From the NCBI GenBank assembly GCA_030390025.1, contig CM059431.1:135596001-135660000 (forward strand): a stretch of DNA of 64,000 nt. The letters are read 5' to 3'. Below the pieces are notes generated by a model, which saw only the letters and a program-made list of their open reading frames with translations, ran no database searches and had not been told where the DNA came from. Shown one piece after another: positions 1,657-47,323 of this stretch (the first letter of the stretch is position 1; every line of letters begins with the position of its first letter). The stretch is from Squalus acanthias (Eukaryota). The translations under genes and the position numbers were made by a program.

Positions 1657-1826
1657 GGAGGAGGTGGATCTGTGTGGGAGCGGCAGCAGGACCTGAGAGA
1701 AGGCAGAGCGGCCATAAAAGAGCACTGCAGAGGAGGCCTGACACCGGAGGAGGCGGACCTGTGTGAGAGCGGCAGCGGGACCTGAGAGAAGGCGGAGCGG
1801 CCATAAAAGAGTGCTGCAGAGGAGGC
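1657..1826 (+). repeat. Two tandem 89-bp monomers in the CR1 5' UTR
   Basis: ggaggagg(t/c)gga...gcggcagc(a/g)ggacctgagagaagg...gagcggccataaaagag starts at both 1657 and 1746. Confidence 0.88.
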
Positions 1827-2075
1827 TGTGAGTTGGGAAAGAGTCCGAGAGCGGGAGCAGTCAAACAACAACTGCGAAACCGCTAAAGTGATGTCACAAC
1901 CAGGAAAGGAGCTGATTGGTAAGTAGGACCTGGTGAGTATTTCTACAGTCCAGTCATTGAAATAAAAGTAAGGCCTCTAGTTTAGAGTAAGTAGTGTTTA
2001 AAGGGAAGTAAGGTCCCAAGTGTATTTAATATTCTTTAATTTAAAGGAAGTAAAGGGAGTAAATTAAGGGTAGGA

Positions 2076-2998: not shown

Positions 2999-3000
2999 AC

Positions 3001-5885: not shown

Positions 5886-5957
5886 AATAGACAGGGCTTG
5901 ATGGCCGGCGCGGACACGATGGTCCGAAGGGCCTCTTTCTGTGCTGTATAGCTCTAT

Positions 5958-8344: not shown

Positions 8345-9298
8345 CTAGTTTAAACCCTCCCCAACAGCACTAGCAAACCTCCCCGCAAGAATATTGGTCC
8401 CGGCTCTGTTGAGGTGTAACCCATCTGGCTTGTACAGGTCCCACCTTCCCCAGAAACGGTCCCAATGCCTCAGGAATCTAAAGCCCTCCCTCCTGCACCA
8501 TCTCTCCAGCCATACATTCATCTGCTCTATCCTCCTGTTTCTGTACTCACTAGCACGTGGCACCGGAAGGAATCTGGAGATTACTGCCTTTGAGGTCCTG
8601 CTTTTCAATCTCTTTCCTAGCTCCCTATAGTCTGCCTGCAGGACCTCATCCCTCTTTCTGCCTATGTCGTTGGTACCGATGTGGACAACGACCTCTGGCT
8701 GTTCACCCTCCACCCTCAGAGTGTCCTGCAGCTGCTCAATGACATCCTTGACCCTGGCACCAGGGAGGCAACATACCATCCTGGAGTCACATCTGCTTCC
8801 ACAGAAACACGTATCTGTTCCCCATACGAATTAATCCCCTATCACTATTACTCTTCCACTCTTCTCCCTCCCTCCCCCCTGTGCAACTGAGCCACCCGTG
8901 GTGCCGTGGCCTTGGCTCTGGCTGCTCTCCCCAGAGGAGCCATCACCCCCACCAGTTTTCAGAACTGTGAACCGATTAGCGAGCGAGATGCACTCTGGGG
9001 ATTCCTGCCCTACCTGCCTGGTCCTCCTTCTCTGTCTGGTGGTCACCCATTCCCTCTCTGCCTGCACATTCTGAGGCTGCGGGGTGACCACTCCTAGATA
9101 TGTGCTTTCCAAGTATTTCTCAGCCTCACGGATGCACTGTAGTGACTCCAGCTGCTGCTCAAGCTCCGAAATCTGGAGCTCGAGTTGCTGCAGTTGGTGA
9201 CACTTCCTGCACACGTGGTCATCCAGGTCGCAAGAAGTGTCCAGGATTTCCCACATGGCACAGGGTGTGCAAATCATGGGACTGAGCTGCCCTGCCAT
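8345..9298 (-). pseudogene. CR1 ORF1 (Cys cluster/leucine zipper plus SGNH esterase-like domain), lightly disrupted
   Basis: MAGQLSPMICTPCAMWE...HVCRKCHQLQQLELQISELEQQLESL...VIVIGD(stop), then CCLPGARVKD, VVVHIGTNDIG and DGLHLN. Confidence 0.88.
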
Positions 9299-9672
9299 GC
9301 CTCTATTTACCAGACTATGGAGGTAATTTAGCAGAAATAAACTTAAAACTTAACAAGAAACACTCAACAGCTACCCACCAATCAGCACTTCCCTCTATTA
9401 GATAGGCTATGCACTACTTAGCAGAAATCTACTCAAAACAGAACAAAAAAACTTACCACAAAAACACACCCTATACTCACCTCTCAGCTCCCTTGTGCCA
9501 GCGACACCTTTGAATTCTGACGCCACTCCTTCGTTGTGTTGCTTGCCGACTGTCTCCCTCGCAGGTAGTCCGCTCACTCAGACTCCCAGGCCTCTGCTCC
9601 GCACTGGTTTTATCCCCGGACTCTGACTCCGTTCCTCCCGCAGGTCCGCTCACTGAGACTGTGCTGCTGCCC

Positions 9673-9684
9673 TGTGACGTCACA
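9673..9684. promoter_or_regulatory. Perfect 12-bp palindrome TGTGACGTCACA containing a CRE/ATF site, in the CR1 5' UTR
   Basis: TGACGTCA at 9675-9682. A related motif (aaagtgatgtcaca) lies near 1885-1898 in the other CR1 5' UTR. Function not shown. Confidence 0.45.
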
Positions 9685-12600
9685 CTTTATTTTTTGGAAA
9701 TCATGGAAGGTCCCGCCACCGCCGCAGGTCTCTCCAATCAGGTCCTCGCTGTTTAAAGTACTCTGCCGCTCTGGCTCTCGACTCCCGCTCTGTTTAAAGT
9801 ACTCTGCCGCTCTGGCTCTCCAAACAGGTCCGCTCTGTTTAAAGTACTCTGCCGCTCTGGCTCTCCTCTCCCGCTCTGTTTAAAGTATTCTGCCGCTCTG
9901 GCTCTCCGCTCCCGCTCTGTTTAAAGTACTCTGTCACTCTGGCTCTCCACTCTCGCTCTGTTTAAAGTACTCTGCCGCTCTGGCTCTCCGCTCCCGCTCT
10001 GTTTAAAGTACTCTGTCACTCTGGCTCTCCGCTCCCGCTCTGTTTAAAGTAATCTGCCGCTCTGGCACTCCTCTCACGCTCTGTTTAAAGTACTCTGTCA
10101 CTCTGGCGCTCCGCTCCCGCTCTGTTTAAAGTACTCTGCCGCTCTGGCTCTCCGCTCCCGCTCTGTTTAAAGTACTCTGTCACTCTGGGTCTCTGCTCCC
10201 GCTCTGTTTAAAGTAATCTGCCGCTCTGGCTCTCCGCTCCCGCTCTGTTTAAAGTACTCTGTCACTCTGGCTCTCCACTCTCGCTCTGTTTAAAGTACTC
10301 TGTTGCTCTGGCTCTCCGCTCCCGTTGTTTAAAGTACTCTGTTGCTCTGGCTCTCCACTCCCGCTCTGTTTAAAGTACTCTGATGCTCAGGCTCTCCACT
10401 CACGCTGTTTAAAGTACTCTGCCACACTTGCTCTGCGCTCCCGGTCTCTTTAAAGTACTCTGTCGCTCTGGCTCTCCTCTCCCGCTCTGTTTAAAGTACT
10501 CTGTCGGTCTAGCTCTCTGCTCCCGATCTGTTTAAAGTACTCTGCCACTCTGGCTCTCCGCTCCCGCTCTGTTTAAAGTACTCTGTCGCTCTGGCTCTCC
10601 GCTCCCACTCTGTTTAAAGTACTCTGTCGCTCTGGCTCTCCGCTCCCGCTCTGTTTAAAGTACTCTGCCGCTCTGGCTCTGCGCTCCCACTCTGTTTAAA
10701 GTACTCTGTCACACTGGCTCTCTGCTCCCGCTCTGTTTAAAGTACTCTGTCACACTGGCTCTCTGCTCCTGCTCTGTTTAAAGTACTCTGTCACTCCGGC
10801 TCTCTGCTCCCGCTCCGTTAAAATTACTCTGACGCTCTGGCTCTCCGCTCCCGCTCTGTTTAAAGTACTCTGTCGCTCTGGCTCTCTGCTCCCGCTCTGT
10901 TTAAAGTACTCTGTCGCTCTGGCTCTCTGCTCCCGCTCTGTTTAAAGTACTCTGTCGCTCTGGCTCTCCGCTCCCGCTGTTTAAAGTACTCTGTTGCTCT
11001 GGCTCTCCGCTCCCGCTCTGTTTAAAGTACTCTGTCGCTCTGGCTCTACTCTCCCGCTCTGTTTAAAGTACTCTGTCGCTCTGGCTCTCTGCTCCCGCTC
11101 TGTTTAAATACTCTTTCGCTCTGGCTCTCCGCTCCCGCTCTGTTTAAAGTACTCTGTCGCTCTGGCTCTGCGCTCCCGCTGTTTAAAGTACTCTGTCGCT
11201 CTGGCTCTGCGCTCCCGCTGTTTAAAGTACTCTGTCACTCTGGCTCTCCGCTCCCGCTCTGTTTAAAGTACTCTTTCGCTCTGGCTCTCCACTCCCACTC
11301 TGTTTAAAGTACTCTGTCGCTCTGGCTCTCTGCTCCCTCTCTGTTTAAATACTCTTTCGCTCTGGCTCTCCGCTCCCGCTCTGTTTAAAGTGCTCTGTCG
11401 CTTTGGCTCTCTGCTCCCGCTCTGTTTAAATACTCTTTCGCTCTGGCTCTCCGCTCCCGCTCTGTTTAAAGTACTCTGTCGCTCTGGCTCTCCACTCCCG
11501 CGCTGTTTAAAGTACTCTGTCACTCTGGCTCTCCGCTCCCGCTCTGTTTAAAGTACTCTGTCACTCTGGCTCTCCGCTCCCCCTCTGTTTAAAGTACTCT
11601 GTCACTCTGGCTCTCCGCTCCCGCTCTGTTTAAAGTACTCTGCCGCTCTGGCTCTGCGCTCCCACTCTGTTTAAAGTACTCTGTCACTCTGGCTCTCCGC
11701 TCCCGTTGTTTAAAGTACTCTGTCGCTCTGGCTCCCTGCTCTTGCTCTGTTTAAAGTGCTCTGCCACTCTGGCTCTCGACTCCCGCTCTGTTTAAAGTAC
11801 TCTGCCGCTGTGGCTCTCCTCTCCCGCTCTGTTTAAAGTACTCTGTCGCTCTGGCTCTGCGCTCCCGCTGTTTAAAGTTCTCTGTCACTCTGGCTCTCCG
11901 CTCCCGCTCTGTTAAGTACTCTGTCGCTCTGGCTCTACTCTCCCGCTCTTTTTAAAGTACTCTGTCGCTCAGGCTCTCTGCTCCCGCTCTGTTTAAAGTA
12001 CTCTGCCGCTCTGGCTCTCTGCTCCCCCTCTGTTTAAAGTACTCTGCCGCTCTGGCTCTCTGCTCCCCCTCTGTTTAAAGTACTCTGTTGCTCTGGCTCT
12101 CCGCTCCCGCTCTGTTAAGTACTCTGTCGCTCTGGCTCTACTCTCCCACTCTGTTTAAAGTACTCTGTCACTCTGGCTCTCCGCTCCCGCTCTGTTTAAA
12201 GTACTCTGTCACTCTGGCTCTCCGCTCCCCCTCTGTTTAAAGTACTCTGTCACTCTGGCTCTCCGCTCCCGCTCTGTTTAAAGTACTCTGCCGCTCTGGC
12301 TCTGCGCTCCCGCTCTGTTTAAAGTACTCTGTCACTCTGGCTCTCCGCTCCCGTTCTGTTTAAAGTACTCTGTCACTCTGGCTCTCCGCTCCCGCTCTGT
12401 TCAAAGTAATCTGTCGCTCTGGCTCTCCGCTCCCGCTCTGTTTAAAGTACTCTGTCGCTCTGGCTCTGCGCTCCCACTCTGTTTAAAGTACTCTGTCACT
12501 CTGGCTCTCCGCTCCCGTTGTTTAAAGTACTCTGTCGCTCTGGCTCCCTGCTCTCGCTCTGCTAAAAGTACTCTGCCGCTCTGGCTCTGCGCTCCCACTC

Positions 12601-15600
12601 TGTTTAAAGTACTCTGTCACTCTGGCTCTCCGCTCCCGTTCTGTTTAAAGTACTCTGTCACTCTGGCTCTCCGCTCCCGCTCTGTTTAAAGTAATCTGTC
12701 GCTCTGGCTCTCCGCTCCCGCTCTGTTTAAAGTACTCTGTCGCTCTGGCTCTGCGCTCCCACTCTGTTTAAAGTACTCTGTCACTCTGGCTCTCCGCTCC
12801 CGTTGTTTAAAGTACTCTGTCGCTCTGGCTCCCTGCTCTCGCTCTGCTAAAAGTACTCTGTCGTTCTGGCTCTCCGCTCCCGCTCTATTTAAAGTACTCT
12901 GTCGCTCTGGCACTCCACTCCCGTTGTTTAAAGTACTCTGTCGCTCTGGCTCCCTGCTCTCGCTCTGTTTAAAGTACTCTGTCGCTTTGGCTCTCTGCTC
13001 CCGCTCTGTTTAAAGTACTCTGCCACTCTGGCTCTCCACTCCCGCTCTGTTTACAGTACTCTGTCGCTCTGGCTCTCCGCTCCCGCTCTGTTTAAATTAC
13101 TCTGTCGCTCTGGCTCTCCGCTCCCGCTCTGTTTAAAGTACTCTGCCGCTCTGGCTCTCCACTCCCGCTCAGTTTAAATGCTCTGTCGCTCTTGCTCTCC
13201 GCTCCCGCTCTGTTTAAAGTACTCTGCCGCTCTGGCTCTCTGCTCCCCCTCTGTTTAAAGTACTCTGTTGCTCTGGCTCTCCGCTCCCGCTCTGTTAAGT
13301 ACGCTGTCGCTCTGGCTCTACTCTCCCGCTCTTTTTAAAGTACTCTGTCGCTCAGGCTCTCTGCTCCCGCTCTGTTTAAAGTACTCTGCCGCTCTGGCTC
13401 TCTGCTCCCCCTCTGTTTAAAGTACTCTGCCGCTCTGGCTCTCTGCTCCCCCTCTGTTTAAAGTACTCTGTTGCTCTGGCTCTCCGCTCCCGCTCTGTTA
13501 AGTACTCTGTCGCTCTGGCTCTACTCTCCCACTCTGTTTAAAGTACTCTGTCACTCTGGCTCTCCGCTCCCGCTCTGTTTAAAGTACTCTGTCACTCTGG
13601 CTCTCCGCTCCCCCTCTGTTTAAAGTACTCTGTCACTCTGGCTCTCCGCTCCCGCTCTGTTTAAAGTACTCTGCCGCTCTGGCTCTGCGCTCCCGCTCTG
13701 TTTAAAGTACTCTGTCACTCTGGCTCTCTGCTCCCGTTCTGTTTAAAGTACTCTGTCACTCTGGCTCTCCGCTCCCGCTCTGTTCAAAGTAATCTGTCGC
13801 TCTGGCTCTCCGCTCCCGCTCTGTTTAAAGTACTCTGTCGCTCTGGCTCTGCGCTCCCACTCTGTTTAAAGTACTCTGTCACTCTGGCTCTCCGCTCCCG
13901 TTGTTTAAAGTACTCTGTCGCTCTGGCTCCCTGCTCTCGCTCTGCTAAAAGTACTCTGTCGTTCTGGCTCTCCGCTCCCGCTCTATTTAAAGTACTCTGT
14001 CGCTCTGGCACTCCACTCCCGTTGTTTAAAGTACTCTGTCGCTCTGGCTCCCTGCTCTCGCTCTGTTTAAAGTACTCTGTCGCTTTGGCTCTCTGCTCCC
14101 GCTCTGTTTAAAGTGCTCTGCCACTCTGGCTCTCCACTCCCGCTCTGTTTACAGTACTCTGTCGCTCTGGCTCTCCGCTCCCGCTCTGTTTAAATTACTC
14201 TGTCGCTCTGGCTCTCCGCTCCCGCTCTGTTTAAATTACTCTGTCGCTCTGGCTCTCCGCTCCCGCTCTGTTTAAAGTACTCTTCCGCTCTGGCTCTCCA
14301 CGCCCGCTCAGTTTAAATGCTCTGTCGCTCTTGCTCTCCGCTCCCGCTCTGTTTAAAGTACTCTGTCGCTCTGGCTCTCTGCTCCCGCTCTGTTTAAATG
14401 CTCTGTCGCTCTTGCTCTCCGCTCCCGCTCTGTTTAAAGTACTCTGCCGCTCTGGCTCTCTGCTCCCCCTCTGTTTAAAGTACTCTGTTGCTCTGGCTCT
14501 CCGCTCCCGCTCTGTTAAGTACGCTGTCGCTCTGGCTCTACTCTCCCGCTCTTTTTAAAGTACTCTGTCGCTCAGGCTCTCTGCTCCCGCTCTGTTTAAA
14601 GTACTCTGCCGCTCTGGCTCTCTGCTCCCCCTCTGTTTAAAGTACTCTGCCGCTCTGGCTCTCTGCTCCCCCTCTGTTTAAAGTACTCTGTTGCTCTGGC
14701 TCTCCGCTCCCGCTCTGTTAAGTACTCTGTCGCTCTGGCTCTACTCTCCCACTCTGTTTAAAGTACTCTGTCACTCTGGCTCTCCGCTCCCGCTCTGTTT
14801 AAAGTACTCTGTCACTCTGGCTCTCCGCTCCCCATCTGTTTAAAGTACTCTGTCACTCTGGCTCTCCGCTCCCGCTCTGTTTAAAGTACTCTGCCGCTCT
14901 GGCTCTGCGCTCCCGCTCTGTTTAAAGTACTCTGTCACTCTGGCTCTCCGCTCCCGTTCTGTTTAAAGTACTCTGTCACTCTGGCTCTCCGCTCCCGCTC
15001 TGTTCAAAGTAATCTGTCGCTCTGGCTCTCCGCTCCCGCTCTGTTTAAAGTACTCTGTCGCTCTGGCTCTGCGCTCCCACTCTGTTTAAAGTACTCTGTC
15101 ACTCTGGCTCTCCGCTCCCGTTGTTTAAAGTACTCTGTCGCTCTGGCTCCCTGCTCTCGCTCTGCTAAAAGTACTCTGTCGTTCTGGCTCTCCGCTCCCG
15201 CTCTATTTAAAGTACTCTGTCGCTCTGGCACTCCACTCCCGTTGTTTAAAGTACTCTGTCGCTCTGGCTCCCTGCTCTCGCTCTGTTTAAAGTACTCTGT
15301 CGCTTTGGCTCTCTGCTCCCGCTCTGTTTAAAGTACTCTGCCACTCTGGCTCTCCACTCCCGCTCTGTTTACAGTACTCTGTCGCTCTGGCTCTCCGCTC
15401 CCGCTCTGTTTAAATTACTCTGTCGCTCTGGCTCTCCGCTCCCGCTCTGTTTAAAGTACTCTGCCGCTCTGGCTCTCCACTCCCGCTCAGTTTAAATGCT
15501 CTGTCGCTCTTGCTCTCCGCTCCCGCTCTGTTTAAAGTACTCTGTCGCTCTGGCTCTCTGCTCCCGCTCTGTTTAAATGCTCTGTCGCTCTTGCTCTCCG

Positions 15601-18600
15601 CTCCCGCTCTGTTTAAAGTACTCTGCCGCTCTGGCTCTCTGCTCCCCCTCTGTTTAAAGTACTCTGTTGCTCTGGCTCTCCGCTCCCGCTCTGTTAAGTA
15701 CTCTGTCGCTCTGGCTCTACTCTCCCGCTCTTTTTAAAGTACTCTGTCGCTCAGGCTCTCTGCTCCCGCTCTGTTTAAAGTACTCTGCCGCTCTGGCTCT
15801 CTGCTCCCCCTCTGTTTAAAGTACTCTGCCGCTCTGGCTCTCCGCTCCCGCTGTTTAAAGTACTCTGTTGCTTTGGCTCTCCGCTCCCGCTCTGTTAAGT
15901 ACTCTGTCGCTCTGGCTCTACTCTCCCGCTCTGTTTAAAGTACTCTGTCGCTCTGGCTCTCTGCTCCCGCTCTGTTTAAATACTCTTTCGCTCTGGCTCT
16001 CCGCTCCCGCTCTGTTTAAAGTACTCTGTCGCACTGGCTCTGCGCTCCCGCTGTTTAAAGTACTCTGTCGCTCTGGCTCTGCGGTCCCGCTGTTTAAAGT
16101 TCTCTGTCACTCTGGCTCTCCGCTCCTGCTCTGTTTAAAGTACTCTTTCGCTCTGGCTCTCCACTCCCACTCTGTTTAAAGTACTCTGTCACTCTGGCTC
16201 TCCACTCCCGCTCTGTTTAAAGTACTCTGTCACTCTGGCTCTCCGCTCCCCCTCTGTTTAAAGTACTCTGTCACTCTGGCTCTCCGCTCCCGCTCTATTT
16301 AAAGTACTCTGCCGCTCAAGCTCTGCGCTCCCACTCTGTTTAAAGTACTCTGTCACTCTGGCTCTCCGCTCCCGCTCTATTTAAAGTACTCTGCCGCTCA
16401 AGCTCTGCGCTCCCACTCTGTTTAAAGTACTCTGTCGCTCTGGCTCTCCGCTCCCGCTCTGTTTAAAGTACTCTGTCACTCTGGCACTCCGCTCCCGCTC
16501 TGTTTAAAGTACTCTGTCACTCTGGCTCTCCGCTCCCGCTCTGTTTGAAGTACTCTATCGCTCTGGCTCTCCGCTCCCGCTCTGTTTAAAGTACTCTGTC
16601 GCTCTGGCTCTGCGCTCCCACTCTGTTTAAAGTACTCTGTCACTCTGGCTCCCTGCTCTCGCTCTGTTTAAAGTACTCTGTCGTTCTGGCTCTCCGCTCC
16701 CGCTCTATTTAAAGTACTCTGTCGCTCTGGCTCTCCGCTCCCGTTGTTTAAAGTACTCTGTTGCTCTGGCTCCCTGCTCTCACTCTGTTTAAAGTACTCT
16801 GTCGCTTTGGCTCTCTGCTCCCGCTCTGTTTAAAGTGCTCTGCCGCTCTGGCTCTCTGCTCCCCCTCTGTTTAAAGTACTCTGCCGCTCTGGCTCTCCGC
16901 TCCCGTTGTTTAAAGTACTCTGTTGCTCTGGCTCCCTGCTCTCACTCTGTTTAAAGTACTCTGTCGCTTTGGCTCTCTGCTCCCGCTCTGTTTAAAGTGC
17001 TCTGCCACTCTGGCTTTCCACTCCCGCTCTGTTTACAGTACTCTGTCGCTCTGGCTCTCCGCTCCCGCTCTGTTTAAATTACTCTGTCGCTCTGGCTCTC
17101 CGCTCCCGCTCTGTTTAAAGTACTCTGCCGCTCTGGCTCTCCGCTCCCGCTCAGTTTAAGTGCTCTGTCGCTCTGGCTCTCCGCTCCCGCTCTGTTTAAA
17201 GTACTCTGTCGCTCTGGCTCTCTGCTCCCGCTCTGTTTAAATGCTCTGTCGCTCTTGCTCTCCGCTCCCGCTCTGTTTAAAGTACTCTGCCGCTCTGGCT
17301 CTCTGCTCCCCCTCTGTTTAAAGTACTCTGCCGCTCTGGCTCTCCGCTCCCGTTGTTTAAAGTACTCTGTCGCTCTGGCTCTCTGCTCCCGCTCTGTTTA
17401 AATGCTCTGTCGCTCTTGCTCTCCGCTCCCGCTCTGTTTAAAGTACTGTGCCGCTCTGGCTCTCCGCTCCCGCTCTGATTAAAGTACTCTGTCCCTCTTG
17501 CTCTCCGCTCCCGCTCTGTTTAAAGTACTCTGTCGCTCTGGCTCTCCGCTCCCGTGCTGTTTAAAGTACTCTGCCACTCTGGCTCTCCGCTCTCGCTCTG
17601 TTTAAATTACTCTGTCGCTCTGGCTCTGCGCTCCCACTCTGTTTAAAGTACTCTGTCACTCTGGCTCTCTGCTCCCGCTCTGTTTAAAGTACTCTTTCGC
17701 ATTGGCTCTGCTCTCCCGCTCTGTATAAAGCACTCTGTCACTCTGGCTCTCCGTTTCCGCTGTTTAAAGTACTCTGTCGCTCTGGCTCTCAGCTCCCGCT
17801 CTGTTTAAAGTGCTCTGTCACTCTGGCTCTCCGCTCCCGCTGTTTAAAGTACTCTGTCGCTCTGCCTCTCCGCTCCCGCTGTTTAAATACTCTGTCGCTC
17901 TGGCTCTCCGCTCCCGCTGTTTAAAGTACTCTGTCACTCTGGCTCTCCGCTCCCGCTCTGTTTAAAGTACTCTGTCACTCTGGCTCTCAGCTCCCGCTCT
18001 GTTTAAAGTACTCTGTCGCTCTGGCTCTCCGCTCCCGCTCTGTTTAAAGTACTCTGTCACTCTGGCTCTCAGCTCCCGCTCTGTTTAAAGTACTCTGCTG
18101 CTCTGGCTCTCCGCTCCCGCTGTTTAAAGTACTCTGTTGCTCTGGCTCTCCACTCCCGCTGTTTAAAGTACTCTGACGCTCTGGCTCTCCACTCCCGCTG
18201 TTCAAAGTACTCTGCAGCTCTGTCTCTCCGTTCCCGCTGTTTAAAGTACTCTGACGCTCTGGCTCTCCGCTCCCGCTCTGTTTAAAGTACTCTGCAGCTC
18301 TCGATCTCCGCTCCCGCTGTTTAAAGTACTCTGCCGCTCTAGCTCTCCGCTCCCACTCTGTTTAAAGTACTCTGTTGCTCTGGCTCTCCGCTCCCGTTGT
18401 TTAAAGTACTCTGTCGCTCTGGCTCTCCGCTCCCGTTGTTTAAAGTACTCTGTTGCTCTGGCTCTCTGCTCCCGATCTGTTTAAAGTACTCTGTCGCTCT
18501 GGCTCTCCGCTCCCGCTCTGTTTAAAGTACTCTGTCACTCTGGCTCTCCTCTCCCGCTGTTTAAAGTACTCTGTCGCTCTGGCTCTGCGCTCCCGCTCTG

Positions 18601-36600: not shown

Positions 36601-39600
36601 TGTTTAAAGTACTCTGCCTCTCTGGCTCTCCGCTCCCGCTCTGTTTAAAGTACTCTGTCGCTCTGGCTCTCCGCTCCCACTCTGTTTAAAGTACTCTGTC
36701 GCTCTGGCTCTCTGCTCCCGCTCTGTTTAAAGTACTGTGTCGCTGTGGCTCTCCGCTCCCGCTCTGTTTAAAGTACTCTGCCACTCTGGCTCTTCGCTCC
36801 CGCTCTGTTTAAAGTACTCTGTCGCTCTGGCTCTCCGCTCCCGCTCTGTTTAAAGTACTCTGTCGCTCTGGCTCTCCGCTCCCGCTGTTTAAAATACTCT
36901 GTCGCTCTGGCTCTCCGCTCCCGCTATGTTTAAAGTACTCTGTCGCTCTGGCTCTCCGCTCCCGCTGTTTAAAATACTCTGTCGCTCTGGCTCTCCGCTC
37001 CCGCTCTGTTTAAAGTACTCTGTCGCTCTGGCTCTCCTCTCCCACTGTTTAAAGTACTCTGTCGCTCTGCCTCTCCGCTCCCGCTCTGTTTAAAGTACTC
37101 TGTCGCTCTGGCTCTCCTCTCCCACTGTTTAAAGTACTCTGTCGCTCTGGCTCTCCGCTCCCGCTCTGTTTAAAGTACTCTGTCGCTCTGGCTCTCTGCT
37201 CCCGCTCTGTTTAAAGTACTCTGTCGCTCTGGCTCTCCTCTCCCGATCTGTTTCAATGACTCTGCCGCTCTGGCTCTCTGCTCCCGCTCTGTTTAAAGTA
37301 CTCTGTCACTCTGGCTCACTGCTCCCACTCTGTTTAAAGTACTCTATCGCTCTGGCTCTCCGCTCCCACTCTGTTTAAAGTACTCTGTCGCTCTGGCTCT
37401 CTGCTCCCGCTCTGTTTAAAGTACTCTGTCGCTGTGGCTCTCCGCTCCCGCTCTGTTTAAAGTACTCTGTCGCTCTGGCTCTCCGCTCCCGCTGTTTAAA
37501 ATACTCTGTCGCTCTGGCTCTCCGCTCCCGCTGTTTAAAATACTCTGTCGCTCTGGCTCTCCGCTCCCGCTCTGTTTAAAGTACTCTGTCGCTCTGGCTC
37601 TCCTCTCCCACTGTTTAAAGTACTCTGTCGCTCTGCCTCTCCGCTCCCGCTCTGTTTAAAGTACTCTGTCGCTCTGGCTCTCCTCTCCCACTGTTTAAAG
37701 TACTCTGTCGCTCTGGCTCTCCGCTCCCGCTCTGTTTAAAGTACTCTGTCGCTCTGGCTCACCTCTCCCACTGTTTAAAGTATTCTGTCGCTCTGGCTCT
37801 CCGCTCCCGCTCTGTTTAAAATACTCTGTCGCTCTGGCTCTCCTTCCCACTGTTTAAAGTACTCTTTCGCTCTGGCTCTCCGCTCCCGCTCTGTTTAAAG
37901 TACTCTGTCGCTCTGGCTCTCCTCTCCCACTGTTTAATGTACTCTGTCGCTCTGGCTCTCAGCTCCCGCTCTGTTTAAAGTACTCTGTCGCTCTGGCTCT
38001 CCTCTCCCGCTCTGTTTAAAGTACTCTGTCGCTCTGGCTCTCCGCTCCCGCTCTGTTTAAAGTACTCTGTCACTCTGGCTCTCCTCTCCCGCTCTGTTTA
38101 TAGTACTCTGTCGCTCTGGCTCTCAGCTCCCGCTCTGTTTAAAGTACTCTGTCGCTCTGGCTCTCCTCTCCCGCTCTGTTTAAAGTACTCTGTCGCTCTG
38201 GCTCTCCGCTCCCGCTCTGTTTAAGTACTCTGTCGCTCTGGCTCTCCTCTCCCGCTCTGTTTAAAGTACTCTGTCACTCTGGCTCTCCGCTCCCGCTCTG
38301 TTTAAAGTACTCTGTCGCTCTGGCTCTCCGCTCCCGCTGTTTAAAGTACTCTGTCGCTCTGGCTCTCCGCTCCCGCTCTGTTTAAAGTACTCTGCCGCTC
38401 TGGCTCTGCGCTTCCGCTCTGTTTAAAGTACTCTGTCGCTCTGGCTCTCCGCTCCCGCTCTGTTTAAAGTATTCTGTCGCTCTGGCTCTCCGCTCCCACT
38501 GTTTAAAATACTCTGTCGCTCTGGCTCTCCGCTCCCGCTCTGTTTAAAGTACTCTGTCGCTCTGGCCCTCCACTCCCGCTGTTTAAAATACTCTGTCGCT
38601 CTGGCTCTCCGCTCCCGCTCTGTTTAAATTACTCTGCCGCTCTGGCTCTCCGCTTCCACTCTGTTTAAAGTACTCTGTCACTCTGGCTCTCCGCTCCCGC
38701 TCTGTTTAAAGTACTCTGCCGCTCTGGCTCTCTGCTCCCGCTCTGTTTAAAGTACTCTGTCGCTCTGGCTCTCCTCTCCCGATCTGTTTCAATGACTCTG
38801 CCGCTCTGGCTCTCCGCTCCTGCTCTGTTTAAAGTACTCTGCCTCTCTGGCTCTCCGCTCCCGCTCTGTTTAAAGTACTCTGTCGCTCTGGCTCTCAGGT
38901 CCCACTCTGTTTAAAGTACTCTGTCGCTCTGGCTCTCTGCTCCCGCTCTGTTTAAAGTACTGTGTCGCTGTGGCTCTCCGCTCCCGCTCTGTTTAAAGTA
39001 CTCTGCCACTCTGGCTCTCCGCTCCCGCTCTGTTTAAAGTACTCTGTCGCTCTGGCTCTCCGCTCCCGCTCTGTTTAAAGTACTCTGTCGCTCTGGCTCT
39101 CCGCTCCCGCTGTTTAAAATACTCTGTCGCTCTGGCTCTCCGCTCCCGCTATGTTTAAAGTACTCTGTCGCTCTGGCTCTCCGCTCCCGCTGTTTAAAAT
39201 ACTCTGTCGCTCTGGCTCTCCGCTCCCGCTCTGTTTAAAGTACTCTGTCGCTCTGGCTCTCCTCTCCCACTGTTTAAAGTACTCTGTCGCTCTGGCTCTC
39301 CTCTCCCACTGTTTAAAGTACTCTGTCGCTCTGGCTCTCCGCTCCCGCTCTGTTTAAAGTACTCTGTCGCTCTGGCTCACCTCTCCCACTGTTTAAAGTA
39401 TTCTGTCGCTCTGGCTCTCCGCTCCCGCTCTGTTTAAAGTACTCTGTCGCTCTGGCTCTCCTTCCCACTGTTTAAAGTACTCTGTCGCTCTGGCTCTCCG
39501 CTCCCGCTCTGTTTAAAGTACTCTGTCGCTCTGGCTCTCCTCTCCCACTGTTTAATGTACTCTGTCGCTCTGGCTCTCAGCTCCTGCTCTGTTTAAAGTA

Positions 39601-42600
39601 CTCTGTCGCTCTGGCTCTCCTCTCCCGCTCTGTTTAAAGTACTCTGTCGCTCTGGCTCTCCGCTCCCGCTCTGTTTAAAGTACTCTGTCACTCTGGCTCT
39701 CCTCTCCCGCTCTGTTTAAAGTACTCTGTCGCTCTGGCTCTCAGCTCCCGCTCTGTTTAAAGTACTCTGTCGCTCTGGCTCTCCTCTCCCGCTCTGTTTA
39801 AAGTACTCTGTCGCTCTGGGTCTCCGCTCCCGCTCTGTTTAAAGTACTCTGTCGCTCTGGCTCTCCTCTCCCGCTCTGTTTAAAGTACTCTGTCACTCTG
39901 GCTCTCCGCTCCCGCTCTGTTTAAAGTACTCTGCCGCTCTGGCTCTCCGCTCCCACTGTTTAAAGTACTCTGTCGCTCTGGCTCTCCGCTCCCGCTCTGT
40001 TTAAAGTACTCTGCCGCTCTGGCTCTGCGCTCCCGCTCTGTTTAAAGTACTCTGTCGCTCTGGCTCTGCGCTCACGCTCTGTTTAAAGTACTCTGCCGCT
40101 CTGGCTCTGCGCTCCCGCTCTGTTTAAAGTACTCTGTCGCTCTGGCTCTCCGCTCCCGCTCTGTTTAAAGTACTCTGTCACTCTGGCTCTCCGCTCCCGC
40201 TCTGTTTAAATTACTCTGTTGCTCTGGCTCTGCGCTCCCGCTCTGTTTAAAGTACTCTGTCGATCTGGCTCTGCGCTCACGCTCTGTTTAAAGTACTCTG
40301 TCACTCTGGCTCTCCGCTCCTGCTCTGTTTAAAGTACTCTGCCGCTCTGGCTCTGCGCTCCCCCTCTGTTTAAAGTACTCTGTCAAACTGGCTCTCCGCT
40401 CCCGCTCTGTTTAAAGTACTCTGTCGCTCTGGCTCTCCGCTCCCACTCTGTTTAAAGTACTCTGTCGCTCTGGCTCTCCTCTACCGCTGTTTAAAGTACG
40501 CTGTCGCTCTAGCTCTCCGCTCCCGCTCTGTTTAAAGTACGCTGTCGCTCTAGCTCTCCGCTCCCGCTGTTTAAAGTACTCTGTCGCTGTGGCTCTCCGC
40601 TCCCGCTGTTTAAAGTACTCTGTTGCTCTGGCTCTCCTCTCCCGCTCTGTTTAAAGTACTCTGTTGCTCTGGCTCTCCGCTCACGCTCTGTTTAAAGTAA
40701 TCTGCCACTCTGGCTCTCCGCTCCCGCTGTTTAAAGTACTCTGTCGCTCTCGCTCTCCGCTCCCGCTCTGTTTAAAGTACTCTGTCGCTCTGGCTCTCTC
40801 CTCCCGCTCTGTTTAAAGTACTCTGCCGCTCTGGCTCTCCGCTCCCGCTCTGTTTAAAGTACTCTGCGGCTCTGGCTCTCTGCTCCCGCTGTTTAAAGTA
40901 CTCTGTCGCTCTGGCTCTCTGCTCCCACTCTGTTTAAAGTACTCTGTCGCTCTGGGTCTCCGCTCCCGCTCTGTTTAAAGTACTCTGCCACTCTGGCTCT
41001 CCTCTCCCGCTCTATTTAAAGTACTCTGCCACTCTGGCTCTCCGCTCTCGCTCTGTTTAAAGTACTGTGCCGCACTGGCTCTCCGCTCCCGCTCTGTTTA
41101 AAGTACTCTGCCACTCTGGCTCTCCGCTCCCGCTCTGTTTAAAGTAATCTGCCGCTCTGGCTCTCCGCTCCAACTCTGCGTAAAGTACTCTGTCGCTCTG
41201 GCTCTCCGCTCCCGCTCTGTTTAAAGTACTCTGTCGCTCTGGCTCACCTCTCCCACTGTTTAAAGTACTCTGTCGCTCTGGCTCTCCGCTCCCGCTCTGT
41301 TTAAAGTACTCTGTCGCTCTGGCTCTCCTTCCCACTGTTTAAAGTACTCTGTCGCTCTGGCTCTCCGCTCCCGCTCTGTTTAAAGTACTCTGTCGCTCTG
41401 GCTCTCCTCTCCCACTGTTTAATGTACTCTGTCGCTCTGGCTCTCAGCTCCCGCTCTGTTTAAAGTACTCTGTCGCTCTGGCTCTCCTCTCCCGCTCTGT
41501 TTAAAGTACTCTGTCGCTCTGGCTCTACGCTCCCGCTCTGTTTAAAGTACTCTGTCACTCTGGCTCTCCTCTCCCGCTCTGTTTAAAGTACTCTGTCGCT
41601 CTGGCTCTCAGCTCCCGCTCTGTTTAAAGTACTCTGTCGCTCTGGCTCTCCTCTCCCGCTCTGTTTAAAGTACTCTGTCGCTCTGGCTCTCCGCTCCCGC
41701 TCTGTTTAAAGTACTCTGTCGCTCTTGCTCTCCTCTCCCACTCTGTTTAAAGTACTCTGTCACTCTGGCTCTCCGCTCCCGCTCTGTTTAAAGTACTCTG
41801 CCGCTCTGGCTCGCCGCTCCCGCTGTTTAAAGTAATCTGCCACTCTGGCTCTCCGCTCCCGCTGTTTAAAGTACTCTGTCGCTCTGGCTCTCCGCTCCCG
41901 CTCTGTTTAAAGTACTCTGTCGCTCTGCCTCTCTGCTCCCGCTCTGTTTAAAGTACTCTTTCGCTCTGGCTCTCCGCTCACGCTCTGTTTAAAGTAATCT
42001 GCCACTCTGGCTCTCCGCTCCCGCTGTTTAAAGTACTCTGTCGCTCTGGCTCTCCGCTCCCGCTCTGTTTAAAGTACTCTGTCACTCTGGCTCTCTGCTC
42101 CCGCTGTTTAAAGTACTCTGTCGCTCTGGCTCTCAGCTCCCGCTCTGTTTAAAGTACTGTGTCGCTCTGGCTCTCTCCTCCCGCTCTTTTTAAAGTACTC
42201 TCCGCTCAGGCTCTCCGCTCCCGCTCTGTTTAAAGTACTCTGTGGCTCTGGCTCTCTGCCGCTGTTTAAAGTATTCTGTCGCTCTGGCTCTCTGCTCCCA
42301 CTCTGTTTAAAGTACTCTGTCGCTCTGGGTCCCCGCTCCCGCTCTGTTTAAAGTACTCTGTCACTCTGGCTCTCCGCACCCGCTCTGTTTCAAGTACTCT
42401 GTCGCTCTGGCTCTCCACTCTTGCTCTGTTTAAAGTACTCTGTCACTCTGGCTCTCCACTCCCACTCTGTTTAAAGTATTCTGCCACTCTGGCTCTCCGC
42501 TCCCGCTCTGTTTAAAGTACTCTGTCGCTCTGGCTCTCTGCTCCCGCTCTGTTTAAAGTACTCTGTCGCTCTGGCTCTCCGCTCCCGCTCTGTTTAAAGT

Positions 42601-44423
42601 ACTCTGCCGCTCTGGCTCTCCGCTCCCGCTCTGTTTAAAGTACTCTGCGGCTCTGGCTCTCTGCTCCCGCTGTTTAAAGTACTCTGTCGCTCTGGCTCTC
42701 TGCTCCCACTCTGTTTAAAGTACTCTGTCGCTCTGGGTCTCCGCTCCCGCTCTGTTTAAAGTACTCTGCCACTCTGGCTCTCCTCTCCCGCTCTATTTAA
42801 AGTACTCTGCCACTCTGGCTCTCCGCTCTCGCTCTGTTTAAAGTACTGTGCCGCACTGGCTCTCCGCTCCCGCTCTGTTTAAAGTACTCTGCCACTCTGG
42901 CTCTCCGCTCCCGCTCTGTTTAAAGTAATCTGCCGCTCTGGCTCTCCGCTCCAACTCTGCGTAAAGTACTCTGTCGCTCTGGCTCTCCGCTCCCGCTCTG
43001 TTTAAAGTACTCTGTCGCTCTGGCTCACCTCTCCCACTGTTTAAAGTACTCTGTCGCTCTGGCTCTCCGCTCCCGCTCTGTTTAAAGTACTCTGTCGCTC
43101 TGGCTCTCCTTCCCACTGTTTAAAGTACTCTGTCGCTCTGGCTCTCCGCTCCCGCTCTGTTTAAAGTACTCTGTCGCTCTGGCTCTCCACTCCAACTCTG
43201 CGTAAAGTACTCTTTCGCTCTGGCTCTCCGCTTCCGCTCTGTTTAAAGTACTCTGCCACTCTGGCTCTCCGCTCCCGCTGTTTAAAGTACTCTGCCGCTC
43301 TGGCTCTCCGCTCCCTCTCTGTTTAAAGTACTCTGTGCTCTGGCTCTCCGCTCCCGCTCTGTTTAAAGTACTCTGTGCTCTGGCTCTCCGCTCCCACTCT
43401 GTTTAAAGTACTCTGTTGCTCTGGCTCCCTGCCCCCGCTGTTTAAAGTACTCTGTCGCTCTGGCTCTCCGCTCCCGCTCTGTTTAAAGTACTCTGTCGCT
43501 CTGGCTCTCCGCTCCCGCTCTGTTTAAAGTACTCTGCCACTCTGGCTCTCCGCTCACGCTCTGTTTTATGTACTCTGTTGCTCTGGCTCTCTGCTCCCGC
43601 TGTTTAAAGTACTCTGTCGCTCTGCCTCTCCGCTCCCGCTCTGTTTAAAGTACTCTGTTGCTCTGGCTCTCTGCTCCCGCTGTTTAAAGTACTCTTTCGC
43701 TCTGGCTCTCCGCTCCCGCTCTGTTTAAAGTACTCTGCCACTCTAGCTCTCCGCTCACGCTCTGTTTAAAGTACTCTGCCGCTCTGGCTCTCTGCTCCCG
43801 CTCTGTTTAAAGTACTCTGTCACTCTGGCACTCCGCTCCCGCACTGTTTAAAGTACTCTGCCGCTCTGGCTCTCTGCTCCCGCTCTGTTTAAAGTACTCT
43901 GCCACTCTGGCTCTCCGCTCCCGCTCTGTTTAAAGTACTCTGTCACTCTGGCTCTCCGCTCCCGCTCTGTTTAAAGTACTCTGCCACTCAGGCTCTCCGC
44001 TCCCGCTCTGTTTAAAGTACTCTGCCGCTCTCGCTCTCCGCTCTCGCTCTGTTTAAAGTACTCTGCCACTCTGGCTCTCCGCTCCCGCTCTGTTTAAAGT
44101 ACTCTGCCACTCTGGCTCTCCGCTCCCGCACTGTTTAAAGTACTCTGTCGCTCTGGCTCTCCGCTCCCGTTCTGTTTAAAGTACTCTGCCACTCTGGCTC
44201 TCCGCTCCCGCTCTGTTTAAAGTACTCTGCCACTCTGGCTCTCCGCTCCCGCTCTGTTTAAAGTACTCTGCCACTCTGGCTCTCCGCTCCCGCTCTGTTT
44301 AAAGTACTCTGTCACTCTGGCTCTCCGCTCCCGCTCTGTTTAAAGTACTCTATCGCTCTGGCTCTCCGCTCCCGCTCTGTTTAAAGTACTCTGTCGCTCT
44401 GGCTCTCCGCTCCCGCTCTGTTT

Positions 44424-44829
44424 CCATAAGAACATAAGAAATAGGAGCAGGAGTAGGCCAATCGGCCCCTCGAGCCTGCTCCGCCATTCAATAAGATCAT
44501 GGCTGATATGATCCTAACCTCAAATCTAAAGAACACAAGAAGTAGGAGCAGGACCCGGCCACTCAGCCCCTGGGCCCGCTCCGCCACCCACAGGGCCTTG
44601 ACCGATCCGAACTCAGCCTCATGTCCAATTTCCTGCCCGCTCCCCGTAACCCCTAATTCCCTTTACTTCTAGGAAACTGTCTATTTCTGTTTTAAATTTA
44701 TTTAATGATGTAGCTTCCACAGCTTCCTGGGGCAGCAAATTCCACAGACCTACTACCCTCTGAGTGAAGAAGTTTCTCCTCATCTCAGTTTTGATAGAGC
44801 AGCCCCTTATTCTAAGATTATGCCCCCCA
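44424..44829 (-). mobile_element. 5'-truncated CR1 3'-end fragment inserted in the satellite, copy 1
   Basis: Starts with the tail (cataagaa)n and matches the reverse complement of the CR1 3' end at about 53140-53578. gttt occurs on both sides. Confidence 0.9.
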
Positions 44830-45933
44830 GTTTAAAGTACTCTGCCGCTCTGGCTCTCCACTCCCGCTCTGTTTAAAGTACTCTGCCACTCTGGCTCTCT
44901 GCTCCCGCTCTGTTTAAAGTACTCTGTTGCTCTGGCTCTCTGCCCCCGCTGTTTAAAGTACTCTGTCGCTCTGGCTCTCCGCTCCCGCTCTGTTTAAAGT
45001 ACTCTGTCGCTCTGGCTCTCCGCTCCCGCTCTGTTTAAAGTACTCTGCCACTCTGGCTCTCCGCTCACGCTCTGTTTTATGTACTCTGTTGCTCTGGCTC
45101 TCTGCTCCCGCTGTTTAAAGTACTCTGTCGCTCTGCCTCTCCGCTCCCGCTCTGTTTAAAGTACTCTGTTGCTCTGGCTCTCTGCTCCCGCTGTTTAAAG
45201 TACTCTTTCGCTCTGGCTCTCCGCTCCCGCTCTGTTTAAAGTACTCTGCCACTCTAGCTCTCCGCTCACGCTCTGTTTAAAGTACTCTGCCGCTCTGGCT
45301 CTCTGCTCCCGCTCTGTTTAAAGTACTCTGTCACTCTGGCACTCCGCTCCCGCTCTGTTTAAAGTACTCTGCCGCTCTGGCTCTCTGCTCCCGCTCTGTT
45401 TAAAGTACTCTGTCACTCTGGCTCTCCGCTCCCGCTCTGTTTAAAGTACTCTGTCACTCTGGCTCTCCGCTCCCGCTCTGTTTAAAGTACTCTGCCACTC
45501 TGGCTCTCCGCTCCCGCTCTGTTTAAAGTACTCTGCCGCTCTGGCTCTCCGCTCTCGCTCTGTTTAAAGTACTCTGTCACTCTGGCTCTCCGCTCCCGCT
45601 CTGTTTAAAGTACTCTGCCACTCTGGCTCTCCGCTCCCGCTCTGTTTAAAGTACTCTGTCGCTCTGGCTCTCCGCTCCCGTCTGTTTAAAGTACTCTGCC
45701 ACTCTGGCTCTCCGCTCCCGCTCTGTTTAAAGTACTCTGCCACTCTGGCTCTCCGCTCCCGCTCTGTTTAAAGTACTCTGCCACTCTGGCTCTCCGCTCC
45801 CGCTCTGTTTAAAGTACTCTGTCACTCTGGCTCTCCGCTCCCGCTCTGTTTAAAGTACTCTGTCGCTCTGGCTCTCCGCTCCCGCTCTGTTTAAAGTACT
45901 CTGTCGCTCTGGCTCTCCGCTCCCGCTCTGTTT

Positions 45934-46339
45934 CCATAAGAACATAAGAAATAGGAGCAGGAGTAGGCCAATCGGCCCCTCGAGCCTGCTCCGCCATTCA
46001 ATAAGATCATGGCTGATATGATCCTAACCTCAAATCTAAAGAACACAAGAAGTAGGAGCAGGACCCGGCCACTCAGCCCCTGGGCCCGCTCCGCCACCCA
46101 CAGGGCCTTGACCGATCCGAACTCAGCCTCATGTCCAATTTCCTGCCCGCTCCCCGTAACCCCTAATTCCCTTTACTTCTAGGAAACTGTCTATTTCTGT
46201 TTTAAATTTATTTAATGATGTAGCTTCCACAGCTTCCTGGGGCAGCAAATTCCACAGACCTACTACCCTCTGAGTGAAGAAGTTTCTCCTCATCTCAGTT
46301 TTGATAGAGCAGCCCCTTATTCTAAGATTATGCCCCCCA
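45934..46339 (-). mobile_element. 5'-truncated CR1 3'-end fragment inserted in the satellite, copy 2
   Basis: Apparently identical to 44424-44829, with the same junctions, at an offset of 1510 bp. Confidence 0.9.
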
Positions 46340-47323
46340 GTTTAAAGTACTCTGCCGCTCTGGCTCTCCACTCCCGCTCTGTTTAAAGTACTCTGCCACT
46401 CTGGCTCTCTGCTCCCGCTCTGTTTAAAGTACTCTGTTACTCTGGCTCTCCTCTCCTGCTCTGTTTAAAGTACTCTGTCGCTCTGGCTCTCTGCTCCCGC
46501 TGTTTAAAGTACTCTGTCGCTCTGGCTCTCCACTCCCGCTCTGTTTAAAGTACGCTGCCGCTCTGGCTCTCCGCTCCCGCTCTGTTTAAAGTACTCTGTC
46601 GCTCTGGCTCTCCTCTCCTGCTCTGTTTAAAGTACTCTGTCGCTCTGGCTCTCCGCTTCCGCTGTTTCAAGTACTCTGTCACTCTGGCTCTCCTCTCCCT
46701 CTCTGTTTAAAGTACTCTGTCGCTCTGGCTCTCCGCTCCCGCTGTTTAAAGTACTCTGTCACTCTGGCTCTCCTCTCCTGCTCTGTTTAAAGTGCTCTGT
46801 CGCTCTGGCTCTCTGCTCCCGCTGTTTAAAGTACTCTGTCGCTCTGGCTCTCCGCTCCCTCTCTGTTTAAAGTACACTGCCGCTCTGGCTCTCCGCTCCC
46901 GCTCTGTTTAAAGTACTCTGCCACTCTGGCTCTCCGCTCCCGCTCTGTTTAAAGTACTCTGTCACTCTGGCTCTCCGCTCCCGCTCTGTTTAAAGTACTC
47001 TGTCGCTCTAGCTCTCCGCTCCCACTGTTTAAAGTACTCTGCCACTCTGGCTCTCGACTCCCACTCTGTTTAAAGTACTCTGCCACTCTGGCTCTCCGCT
47101 CCCGCTTTTTTTAAAGTACTCTGCTGCTCTGGCTCTCCGCTCCCGCTCTGTTTAAATTACTCTGCCGCTCTGGCTCTCCGCTCCCGCTCTGTTTAAATTA
47201 CTCTGCCGCTCTGGCTCTCCTCTCCCGCTCTGTTTAAATTACTCTGCCGCTCTGGCTCTCTGCTCCCGCTCTGTTTAAAGTACTCTGCCACTCTGGCTCT
47301 CCTCTCCCGCTGTTTAATGTACT

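Follow-up and report, generated by a model that had tools for sequence, protein, structure and literature searches.

The locus analysed here raises the question of whether a satellite array can grow out of the retrotransposon that it adjoins. In the window, by which we mean the whole 64,000-nucleotide stretch of Squalus acanthias DNA, about 900 tandem units of 41 bp run up to the 5' UTR of a minus-strand CR1 LINE, designated CR1 #2. A sequence-only reading had proposed that a promoter monomer of this element expanded in place, leaving a LINE-to-satellite transition still attached to its source. Comparison with related organisms supported the proposal, through contigs that span the junction and through about three units per junction in one relative, organism D.

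The parent element and its CR1 neighbours

The ORF1 of CR1 #2 begins with an ATG at 9298 and occupies 8345..9298 on the minus strand. It is broken by a stop and encodes a C-terminal GDSL esterase (PF13472, E 2.2e-15, on 8348-8830); its N-terminal 155 aa gave no Pfam match. The 5' part of ORF2 (6856..8340, minus) comprises an APE endonuclease (PF14529, E 3.5e-13) and a linker, and is decayed and cut at GPDGL. The longest stop-free stretch in 6856-9298 has 203 codons. The likely remainder of the element (436..1655, minus) encodes reverse transcriptase (PF00078, E 1.9e-15 and 6.9e-14) from PRLLRE onward, carries an internal deletion at 829, and finishes near 436 in a 3' end that bears a short repeated tail. 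Codon continuity suggests that these two parts of ORF2, split by a second element, CR1 #1, are likely one element. The description of CR1 #2 as near full-length was thus too generous. The nested CR1 #1 interrupts it at 6856, its sequence continues from 1655, about 330-360 bp are missing at 829, and its end lies near 436.

CR1-like elements have an ORF1 with an esterase domain. According to the accessible text of PMC4316615, their 3' ends bear a short microsatellite tail instead of poly(A). By its domains, its tail, and the general features of the group, we classify element #2 as a CR1-group LINE, probably of the CR1 clade rather than L2. The 3' tail runs into a TIR element that is cut by the window start, so the target-site duplication of CR1 #2 cannot be checked.

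CR1 #1 (1657..5957, plus) lies within the ORF2 of CR1 #2, to which it is 67% identical. As had been noted from the letters alone, it starts in tandem UTR monomers of 89 bp, of which TRF counted 1.9 copies at 1657-1826; had there been one more unit upstream, its TATA-like patch would lie 33 nt before the first base of CR1 #1. The reported resemblance between this 89-mer and the 41-mer is real, yet modest, since 20 of 1000 shuffles reached the score obtained with the 41-mer consensus and 1 of 1000 that obtained with unit 2 of the array. At the far end of the array, a CR1 ORF2 fragment that lacks its 5' part (47326..48930, plus) adjoins the last unit with a 4-nt microhomology. This fragment is likely an older CR1 into which CR1 #2 inserted.

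The 5' UTR and its junction with the array

The array had been said to begin about 450 bp upstream of the ORF1 ATG without a junction. This proved accurate, as a 39-bp unit variant matches from 9747 with no foreign bases in between. The UTR string quoted for 9730-9758 was exact, and the early unit quoted alongside it starts at 9816. The UTR is not unique, however, because it contains a 76-bp monomer and part of a second copy.

The 5' UTR of CR1 #2 is a composite of 41-mer, tether, and 76-mer modules, all on the minus strand. The monomers connect to the tether through a terminal variant unit (9721..9746), which is present in multiple copies in organisms A, B, and D. The tether (9661..9720), with its palindromic GTGACGTCAC (9674-9683), is common to sister copies in the contigs of relatives that carry another upstream monomer, one with an ATAAAA core. 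Next to it, 9555..9660 holds one 76-bp monomer (9585-9660) and the start of a second; in most relatives, further 76-mers stand upstream of 9660 in place of the tether. The rest of the UTR (9299..9554) contains a T-rich stretch and, at 9480-9474, the motif GTGAGTA, which resembles a splice donor. Searches for the junction motif in metagenome contigs gave 0 matches, and an Rfam search of 9250-10200 gave one chance match only (E 0.29).

The second unit of the array (9794..9838, minus; 45 bp, with the gacctg motif) had been taken for an intermediate between the UTR and the consensus. We rejected it as an evolutionary intermediate because it is rare elsewhere: at 9826 in organism A about 2,950 of a depth of 4,224 lacks 2-4 bases, and in organism B the coverage falls to 12-45 at 9823-9829, from tens of thousands at neighbouring positions. 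Unit 2 instead likely formed locally, by recombination between the terminal unit and an ordinary one.

Whether the junction exists beyond this locus was determined in sequencing runs of related organisms, of which 7 of 24 were compared, namely X1, X2, X5, X7, X21, X23, and X24; among 20 runs with shared sequence words, the best contained 0.47 of them. The raw DNA run of organism F (X21) gave 2 matching reads and was not informative. Bridging was counted in the 8 longest contigs of each DNA run, 24 contigs in all, beyond which the runs yielded 2210 more. With at least 31 letters on both sides, a cut after 9746 was bridged in 5 of 8 contigs from D, 3 of 8 from B, and 2 of 8 from A, and a cut after 9749 in 3, 2, and 0 of 8, respectively. 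In organism D, all 8 of the longest contigs had at least 20 letters on both sides of the junction. These D contigs have a depth of 3-10 and 11-27 differences each, and so represent several distinct copies. In three related organisms, a multi-copy CR1 subfamily therefore has the monomer-tether junction as its normal arrangement, and the junction is not an insertion scar.

These contigs bear directly on the alternative that CR1 #2 inserted at the edge of a pre-existing array and shares a motif with it by chance or microhomology. A CR1 3' end did insert into the array, with a 4-bp target duplication, and within the window alone the likeness of unit to UTR is weak (6-12 of 1000 shuffles). However, an insertion scar would be single-copy, whereas the base-exact junction recurs in many distinct contigs of the three organisms, with variants at 9726 and 9730 common to 19-24 contigs per DNA run. 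Subfamily copies free of the 41-mer, which the sequence-only reading had named as the sign of such an insertion, were not seen for this CR1 subfamily in the relatives. The arrangement it had hoped for, subfamily copies with a few 41-bp units at their 5' ends, was present there, the tether running straight into the 41-mer with about three units per junction in D. We regard insertion at an array edge as extremely improbable.

The ratio of peak 41-mer depth to junction depth was 3.3 in D, 124 in B, and 404 in A. Summed contig depth is not copy number and a filter drops records, so the roughly 3:1 ratio in D could be too low. Set against the ratios of about 120 and 400, it suggests that D likely keeps a short ancestral stack. 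One could also read the relationship in reverse, the 41-mer having first been a free satellite, a piece of which the CR1 lineage recruited as a new 5' end before the satellite was lost in D; the locus would still be an expansion, but its monomer would not be LINE-born. The composite UTR of CR1 #2 is in keeping with such recruitment, recruitment of new 5' UTRs is documented for L1 (PMC5381506, in the portion available), and the 41-mer is abundant in two of the three organisms compared at the junction. On the other hand, the 41-mer resembles the 89-mer of a CR1 that is 67% identical, as the shuffles given above indicate, all three monomers have a TATA-like patch in a like position, the sister copies that share the tether carry yet another monomer, and D has about three units per junction. 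The reverse direction is thus quite improbable, and we hold with high confidence that the monomer of the array originates from a CR1 5' UTR monomer.

Extent and layers of the array

Tiling placed the array at 9747..47329 (minus, the sense of CR1 #2), 37.6 kb made up of 903 units and two 406-bp inserts, and TRF reported 9749-47323 with a period of 41, 923 copies, and 91% matches. The unit count, period, and 37-kb scale given earlier for 9300..47323 therefore stand, although that account did not mention two identical CR1 3'-end inserts. These are a 5'-truncated insert of another CR1 subfamily (44424..44829, minus), flanked by a 4-bp target duplication GTTT, and its identical copy (45934..46339, minus), which arose when a 1510-bp block of the array was duplicated. 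That other CR1s insert into this array counts against the explanation proposed below. All array units have a single orientation, and this head-to-tail organization, together with the short stacks that depth and bridging contigs point to in organism D (a relative, not the same species), places the array among retrotransposon-derived satellite DNA.

The array is layered. A homogeneous young core (19500..32500, minus; 318 units) has 0.13 substitutions per unit and a pairwise divergence of 0.6%, against 8-9% in the flanks: 9.3% in the old flank near the CR1 (9758..18000, minus; 203 units, with local block duplications of 9-26 units) and 7.9% in the distal old flank (36000..47329, minus; 258 units, also with local block duplications). 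Across both flanks the duplicated blocks span 3-27 units and stay inside their own flank, and one of them copied a CR1 insert exactly. In the flanks, CpG sites mutate about 4.5 times faster than other sites. No fixed higher-order repeat was found in the array (best lag share 0.14).

That the length is partly an assembly artefact, a near-identical core having been expanded or collapsed by the assembler while the origin is as we propose, has some appeal. Core units differ from one another by 0.6%, and 7% of them have lost one base of a C pair, a deletion that no flank unit shows and that read errors would produce. Yet the approximately 460 flank units are 8-9% divergent and have a unique block structure, so at least about 20 kb of the array is real, and we judge this explanation very improbable.

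The core and the ends also differ at unit site 9. The derived T is present in 99% of the young core and in 71-78% of flank units, whereas the first 4 and the last 7 units of the array all have the ancestral C. Such runs are rare within the array: 7 of 7 C occurs in 1 of 897 windows, and at least 8 of 12 in 14 of 892. Both array ends retain the C variant carried by relatives, and the young core has T in its place. At 9766, where the window's first unit has C, no C>T change reached at least 10% in the 4 runs; the C>T places counted per run (3, 2, 9, and 3) were all at other rows.

These layers could also have arisen if the array was seeded here and filled from elsewhere, a short stack having come with CR1 #2, and ectopic recombination or gene conversion having copied in much of the array, above all the core, from a larger 41-mer array at a different locus. 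The excess of 41-mers over junctions in A and B shows that large arrays are present in relatives, and such arrays could have supplied units to this locus. The core is unlike both ends at site 9, and the left and right flanks have no ordered blocks in common (best score 7.9, null 7.9-12.1), no mirror symmetry, and no significant correlation of variant frequencies (rho 0.21, p 0.19). Against such filling, the T variant of the core stays below 10% in all 4 runs of relatives and yet makes up 71-78% of flank units, all units face one way, and the duplications found are local. We consider filling from elsewhere unlikely, and growth in place with both ends kept probable. Dating does not discriminate array from element, since divergence is 5-10% between CR1 #2 and a sister copy and 8-9% between pairs of flank units.

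A likely promoter stack, its precedents and its meaning

Measured from the best TATAWAWR match in the respective monomer (7, 6, and 6 of 8 letters), three 5' boundaries follow at distances of 33, 30, and 30-34 nt. The chance of each spacing is 0.08, 0.09, and 0.17, and jointly 0.001, figures that are post hoc and concern weak TATA-like matches. The last is the far end of the array, 30-34 nt after the patch of an absent upstream unit; by its likeness to the other two boundaries in the window, this end (47325-47329) is likely the original 5' end of CR1 #2. The spacings are suggestive of monomers that start transcription. The 41-mer is present in RNA of organism A, and the RNA runs of that organism showed no start cluster at the predicted place in the 41-mer. 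We rejected RNA direction as evidence for a promoter because two runs of organism A show opposite strand bias over the 41-mer (X23, 436-801 against 38-53; X24, 56-58 against 122-132). A sigma-70 scan, which is not suited to a eukaryote, gave 0 sites. From the layout, we lean slightly towards promoter function for the ancestral monomer.

On the basis of these results, we propose that the array represents the monomer stack in the 5' UTR of a single dead CR1 copy. After insertion, unequal recombination likely expanded this stack in place, from a few units to some 900. The three or so 41-mers per element in a related organism indicate that the block likely swelled from a short stack of likely promoter units, which makes the locus a clear example of a satellite that originated in a retrotransposon. 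The subfamily would have arisen by a 5' UTR swap that joined a 41-mer-plus-tether module to the 5' end of a 76-mer CR1. Each 41-mer is likely a small TATA-type promoter whose RNA begins about 30 bases downstream, within the following unit, and a copy would for this reason insert with a few units. The copy that became CR1 #2 probably inserted antisense into an older CR1, its 5' end surviving at 47325-47329. Unequal crossover or break repair between misaligned units would then have enlarged the stack from inside, leaving ancestral-type units at both ends. In the mouse, a 50-monomer L1 promoter has been ascribed to unequal crossing-over (PMC6454616, accessible text). At present the array is likely methylated and inert, carried along by an element that is itself dead.

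As far as the accessible parts of PMC6454616 and PMC5381506 describe them, the mouse L1Md promoters (A, Gf, Tf) work alike: the LINE 5' UTR consists of tandem monomers and a tether to ORF1, terminal units are position-specific, 5' UTRs are swapped between families, and rare very long stacks are ascribed to unequal crossing-over. Here too, tandem 5' monomers and a tether occur on many copies, in bridging contigs of three organisms, with about three units per junction in D. The mouse elements differ in belonging to the L1 clade, in having units of about 200 bp with YY1 or AP-1 sites rather than CR1-clade units of 41 bp with a TATA-like patch, in reaching at most 50 units against about 900, and in that promoter activity is shown there and suggested by layout here. 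With its 41-bp unit, esterase ORF1, and microsatellite tail, the present system is an analogue of the L1Md-type promoters, not a member.

Satellites of Ogre LTR-retrotransposons (Lathyrus FabTR, pea PisTR-A) are similar in that short arrays within a dispersed retrotransposon occasionally expand, relatives keep short arrays only, and later elements insert into the expanded arrays; they differ in coming from the 3' UTR of a plant LTR element rather than the 5' UTR of a vertebrate non-LTR element with both original ends likely surviving, and in their demonstrated centromeric bias (PMC7004042, PMC9659126, as far as accessible). Chicken HinfI/SCR1 and the Cen2, 3, 4, 7, and 11 satellites are likewise CR1-related vertebrate satellite DNA, but HinfI places a 3' UTR and partial ORF2 inside a larger unit and is not an amplified 5' monomer attached to its element (PMC9659126, PMC6947457, in the text available). 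Satellites born from retrotransposons are already known; in the literature searched, no array of CR1 5' UTR monomers and no satellite derived from such an array was found, although Repbase entries, supplements, or subscription papers could hold one. The main text of a 2026 CR1 survey, in its accessible part, uses 'tandem', 'satellite', and 'promoter' 0 times.

The start of a satellite is usually hidden because its seed is lost. This locus preserves the seed and its parent element, likely together with both original ends, and the unexpanded state is kept in a relative, so that the start, growth direction, and turnover of the array become testable against a known ancestor. The layered structure fits a centromeric satellite without showing one. 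A wider reading, which we offer tentatively and hold to be somewhat doubtful, is that, in shark-type CR1s, tandem stacking and swaps of whole promoter modules between subfamilies preserve an upstream TATA promoter across RNA copying, at the cost that every full-length insertion plants a ready-made satellite seed. In that case the locus would record one satellite birth in full and in datable form, the layered 900-unit array still enclosed by both original ends. The relatives would have stopped at about 3, 120, and 400 units per junction with the element, and LINE promoters would be a standing source of vertebrate satellites and perhaps of new centromeres. CR1-group elements make up 22-34% of shark and ray genomes, where they are the dominant repeat class (PMC13343379, accessible text). 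If the proposal is true, the promoter design of CR1-group elements in sharks and rays would feed satellite DNA as a by-product.

The 41-mer array and its host element

The tandem 41-mer block extends from 9749 to 47323, and was reported by Tandem Repeats Finder as a single array with period 41 and 923 copies. Tiling divided it into 903 units with two gaps. Unit length was 41 bp in 719 cases, 39 bp in 107, and 40 bp in 54. The sequence-only reading had joined this array to the 5' UTR of the minus-strand CR1 (CR1 #2), and its landmarks were recovered: the UTR string matched exactly at 9730-9758, the early-unit string was present from 9816, and the ORF1 ATG was found at 9298 on the minus strand.

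Coding potential for an esterase ORF1, an endonuclease, and an RT is recognisable in CR1 #2, which is dead and broken into pieces. Starting at the array, the element continues as far as 6856, at which point ORF2 breaks off at GPDGL; ORF2 picks up at 1655 with PRLLRE. Aligned to the plus-strand CR1 #1 (1657-5957), whose tail holds an 882-bp TIR element, the two parts correspond to positions 2084-4455 and 4465-5205. They are thus nearly contiguous, and CR1 #1 was likely inserted into CR1 #2. Beyond 1655, CR1 #2 has a deletion at 829, then its 3' end and tail near 436, followed by a TIR element cut by the window start. The rest of the window is densely packed with TIR elements and remnants of decayed CR1s, with a DDE_Tnp_4 (Harbinger-type) transposase fragment at 62694-63299. 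Four copies of the TIR element of about 890 bp were found (5958-6839, 59076-59968, about 51303-52198, and 1-436), with 16-bp terminal inverted repeats in both of the two checked. Three of the four are located within the short repeat that forms a CR1 3' tail, a placement suggestive of target preference.

The nested junctions at 6856/1655 and 47326 lie within about 30 bases of one position, which is the DKSPGPDG stretch of CR1 ORF2. Each time, the incoming element has the orientation opposite to that of its target; this stretch is possibly an insertion hot spot. The CRE-like palindrome TGACGTCA occurs in the tether that joins the 41-mers to the rest of the UTR (9674-9683) and in three TIR elements (6130, 52019, and 59789), and the tether of CR1 #1 carries the similar GTGATGTCAC near 1888.

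The 41-mer/tether junction and the composite 5' UTR in relatives

Comparison data came from public sequencing runs. In the 20 listed rows, from nine studies, the share of sampled words present was 22-47%, never half, and the runs therefore represent relatives, not the window's species. Selected runs were searched with 9000-9880 at 85% and with 9610-9800 at 80%. In each of the three DNA runs of the 9610-9800 search, from organisms A, B, and D, 19-24 contigs departed from the window in the same way at both 9726 and 9730, and the junction is multi-copy in these relatives. Among the 8 longest listed contigs of each run, a cut after 9746 was spanned with at least 31 letters on each side by 5 in D, 3 in B, and 2 in A, and a cut after 9749 by 3, 2, and 0, respectively; all 8 in D had at least 20 letters on each side of the cut. 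At depths of 3-10, these D contigs each carried 11-27 letter differences relative to the window; they represent several loci, some perhaps being alleles.

Peak 41-mer depth exceeded junction depth by a factor of 3.3 (D), 124 (B), and 404 (A), and junction depth exceeded single-contig depth by a factor of about 33, 93, and 86, respectively, all rough ratios of summed depth and not copy numbers. Taken as rough ratios, they imply a few dozen elements in organism D, each bearing about three 41-mer units; these would be the dispersed CR1 copies with few units that had been named as support for an origin in the UTR. Large arrays are present in A and B too.

In the relatives' runs, depth was high across the adjacent 76-mer (9585-9660) and about 5- to 50-fold lower beyond 9660. 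Loose ends behind 9660 led in A to a further 76-mer (27 contigs, 10 RNA reads) and in B and D to mixed sequence (agreement 0.48 and 0.43). Most family members thus have more 76-mers or end at 9660; tether and 41-mers are present in a minority. Because 9660 was bridged in all three DNA runs (4, 2, and 4 of 8 listed contigs), the composite UTR is a subfamily feature rather than a peculiarity of the window's copy. Behind 9754, loose ends from B, from D, and from the RNA of A showed the same tether with another upstream monomer. Together with those behind 9660, they indicate that modules are swapped at both joints (76-mer/tether and tether/41-mer); L1 5' UTRs are swapped likewise, according to PMC5381506. 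The loose ends behind 9754 belong to a sister CR1 subfamily in A, B, and D, whose upstream monomer has an ATAAAA core.

The 41-mer was also present in RNA of organism A. Its first-mate strand was biased about 10-25:1 one way in run X23 and about 2:1 the opposite way in X24, and reads across the junction numbered 13 vs 0 and 0 vs 15 by strand, respectively. With the two runs in disagreement, RNA direction does not bear on promoter activity.

Unit 2 (9794-9838, 45 bp) had been read as an early, intermediate form. It proved not to be a family feature: most material of A is without 2-4 bases there, and depth in B was 12-45. Its sequence looks like a fusion between an ordinary unit and the 5' half of the terminal one (9721-9746), and so it likely arose by local unequal exchange, which shows the array and the UTR recombining in register.

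Probable growth in place and homogenisation of the array

Pairwise divergence was 0.6% in the core (19.5-32.5 kb, 318 units), 9.3% in the CR1-proximal left flank (203 units), and 7.9% in the right flank (258 units). The assembled length of so uniform a core may differ from its true length through mis-sizing. Both flanks are composed of block duplications of 3-27 units. One of 1510 bp carried along a 406-bp CR1 3'-end insert (44424-44829, copied base for base at 45934-46339) with its 4-bp target duplication; the insert has an ORF open to its stop, and its similarity to another CR1 3' end, at 53131-53570, is 83%.

A stack of 37 kb in which units of different ages are layered and an insert has been duplicated cannot have arrived as a single RNA, and we infer that the array grew after CR1 #2 was inserted. 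Growth would have proceeded by unequal crossing-over, which the block duplications fit and by which a 50-monomer mouse L1 promoter is explained in PMC6454616. Two results of the flank comparison count against such growth: no ordered blocks common to the left and right flanks were found, and variant frequencies in the two were not significantly correlated. Part of the array may have been imported from another locus.

Site 9 of the unit is T in 99% of the core, C in 22-29% of the flanks, and C in the first 4 and last 7 units of the array; seven C of seven occurred in 1 of 897 windows of units, and at least 8 of 12 in 14 of 892. As no C>T change of at least 10% was found at this site (9766) in the four runs searched, C is the state of the relatives, and T likely spread within the window's array. 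In the first 12 units (9758-10250), four C units are followed by C/T alternation, the vestige of a repeat two units long close to the junction.

CpG sites in the flanks change about 4.5 times faster than other sites, a sequence pattern that points to germline methylation. Observed/expected CpG is 0.79-1.00 in the array, in contrast to 0.32-0.35 in CR1 bodies, and homogenisation therefore outruns CpG decay.

The far end and its implications

The far end adjoins a plus-strand CR1 ORF2 fragment lacking its 5' part; the two share a 4-nt microhomology, and the array's final base falls between 47325 and 47329. In a post hoc test, the best match of each monomer to the TATAWAWR consensus was located relative to its boundary. 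In the 89-mer of CR1 #1 it preceded the 5' end of that element by 33 nt (7/8 letters; chance 0.08), in the 76-mer it preceded the 9660 joint by 30 nt (6/8; 0.09), and in the 41-mer it preceded the far end by 30-34 nt (6/8; 0.17), with a joint chance, likewise post hoc, of 0.001. Should this reading of the spacing hold, CR1 #2 would still have its original 5' end, at the far end of the array, and would contain the array in full; its target would be the plus-strand fragment, the other half of which is predicted to lie left of the window.

The array resembles the mouse L1 monomer promoter in layout and Ogre-derived satellites, as PMC7004042 describes them, in fate, but belongs to neither family. 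CR1-related chicken satellites derive from the 3' part of CR1, according to PMC9659126 and PMC6947457. In PMC4316615 the 5' UTR of CR1 elements is said to be difficult to determine. Literature searches found no satellite from a CR1 5' UTR. The array is real, and a satellite from a CR1 5' UTR is a well-supported novel variation on a known type of system, to which this locus adds a cross-species contrast and two likely intact array ends.
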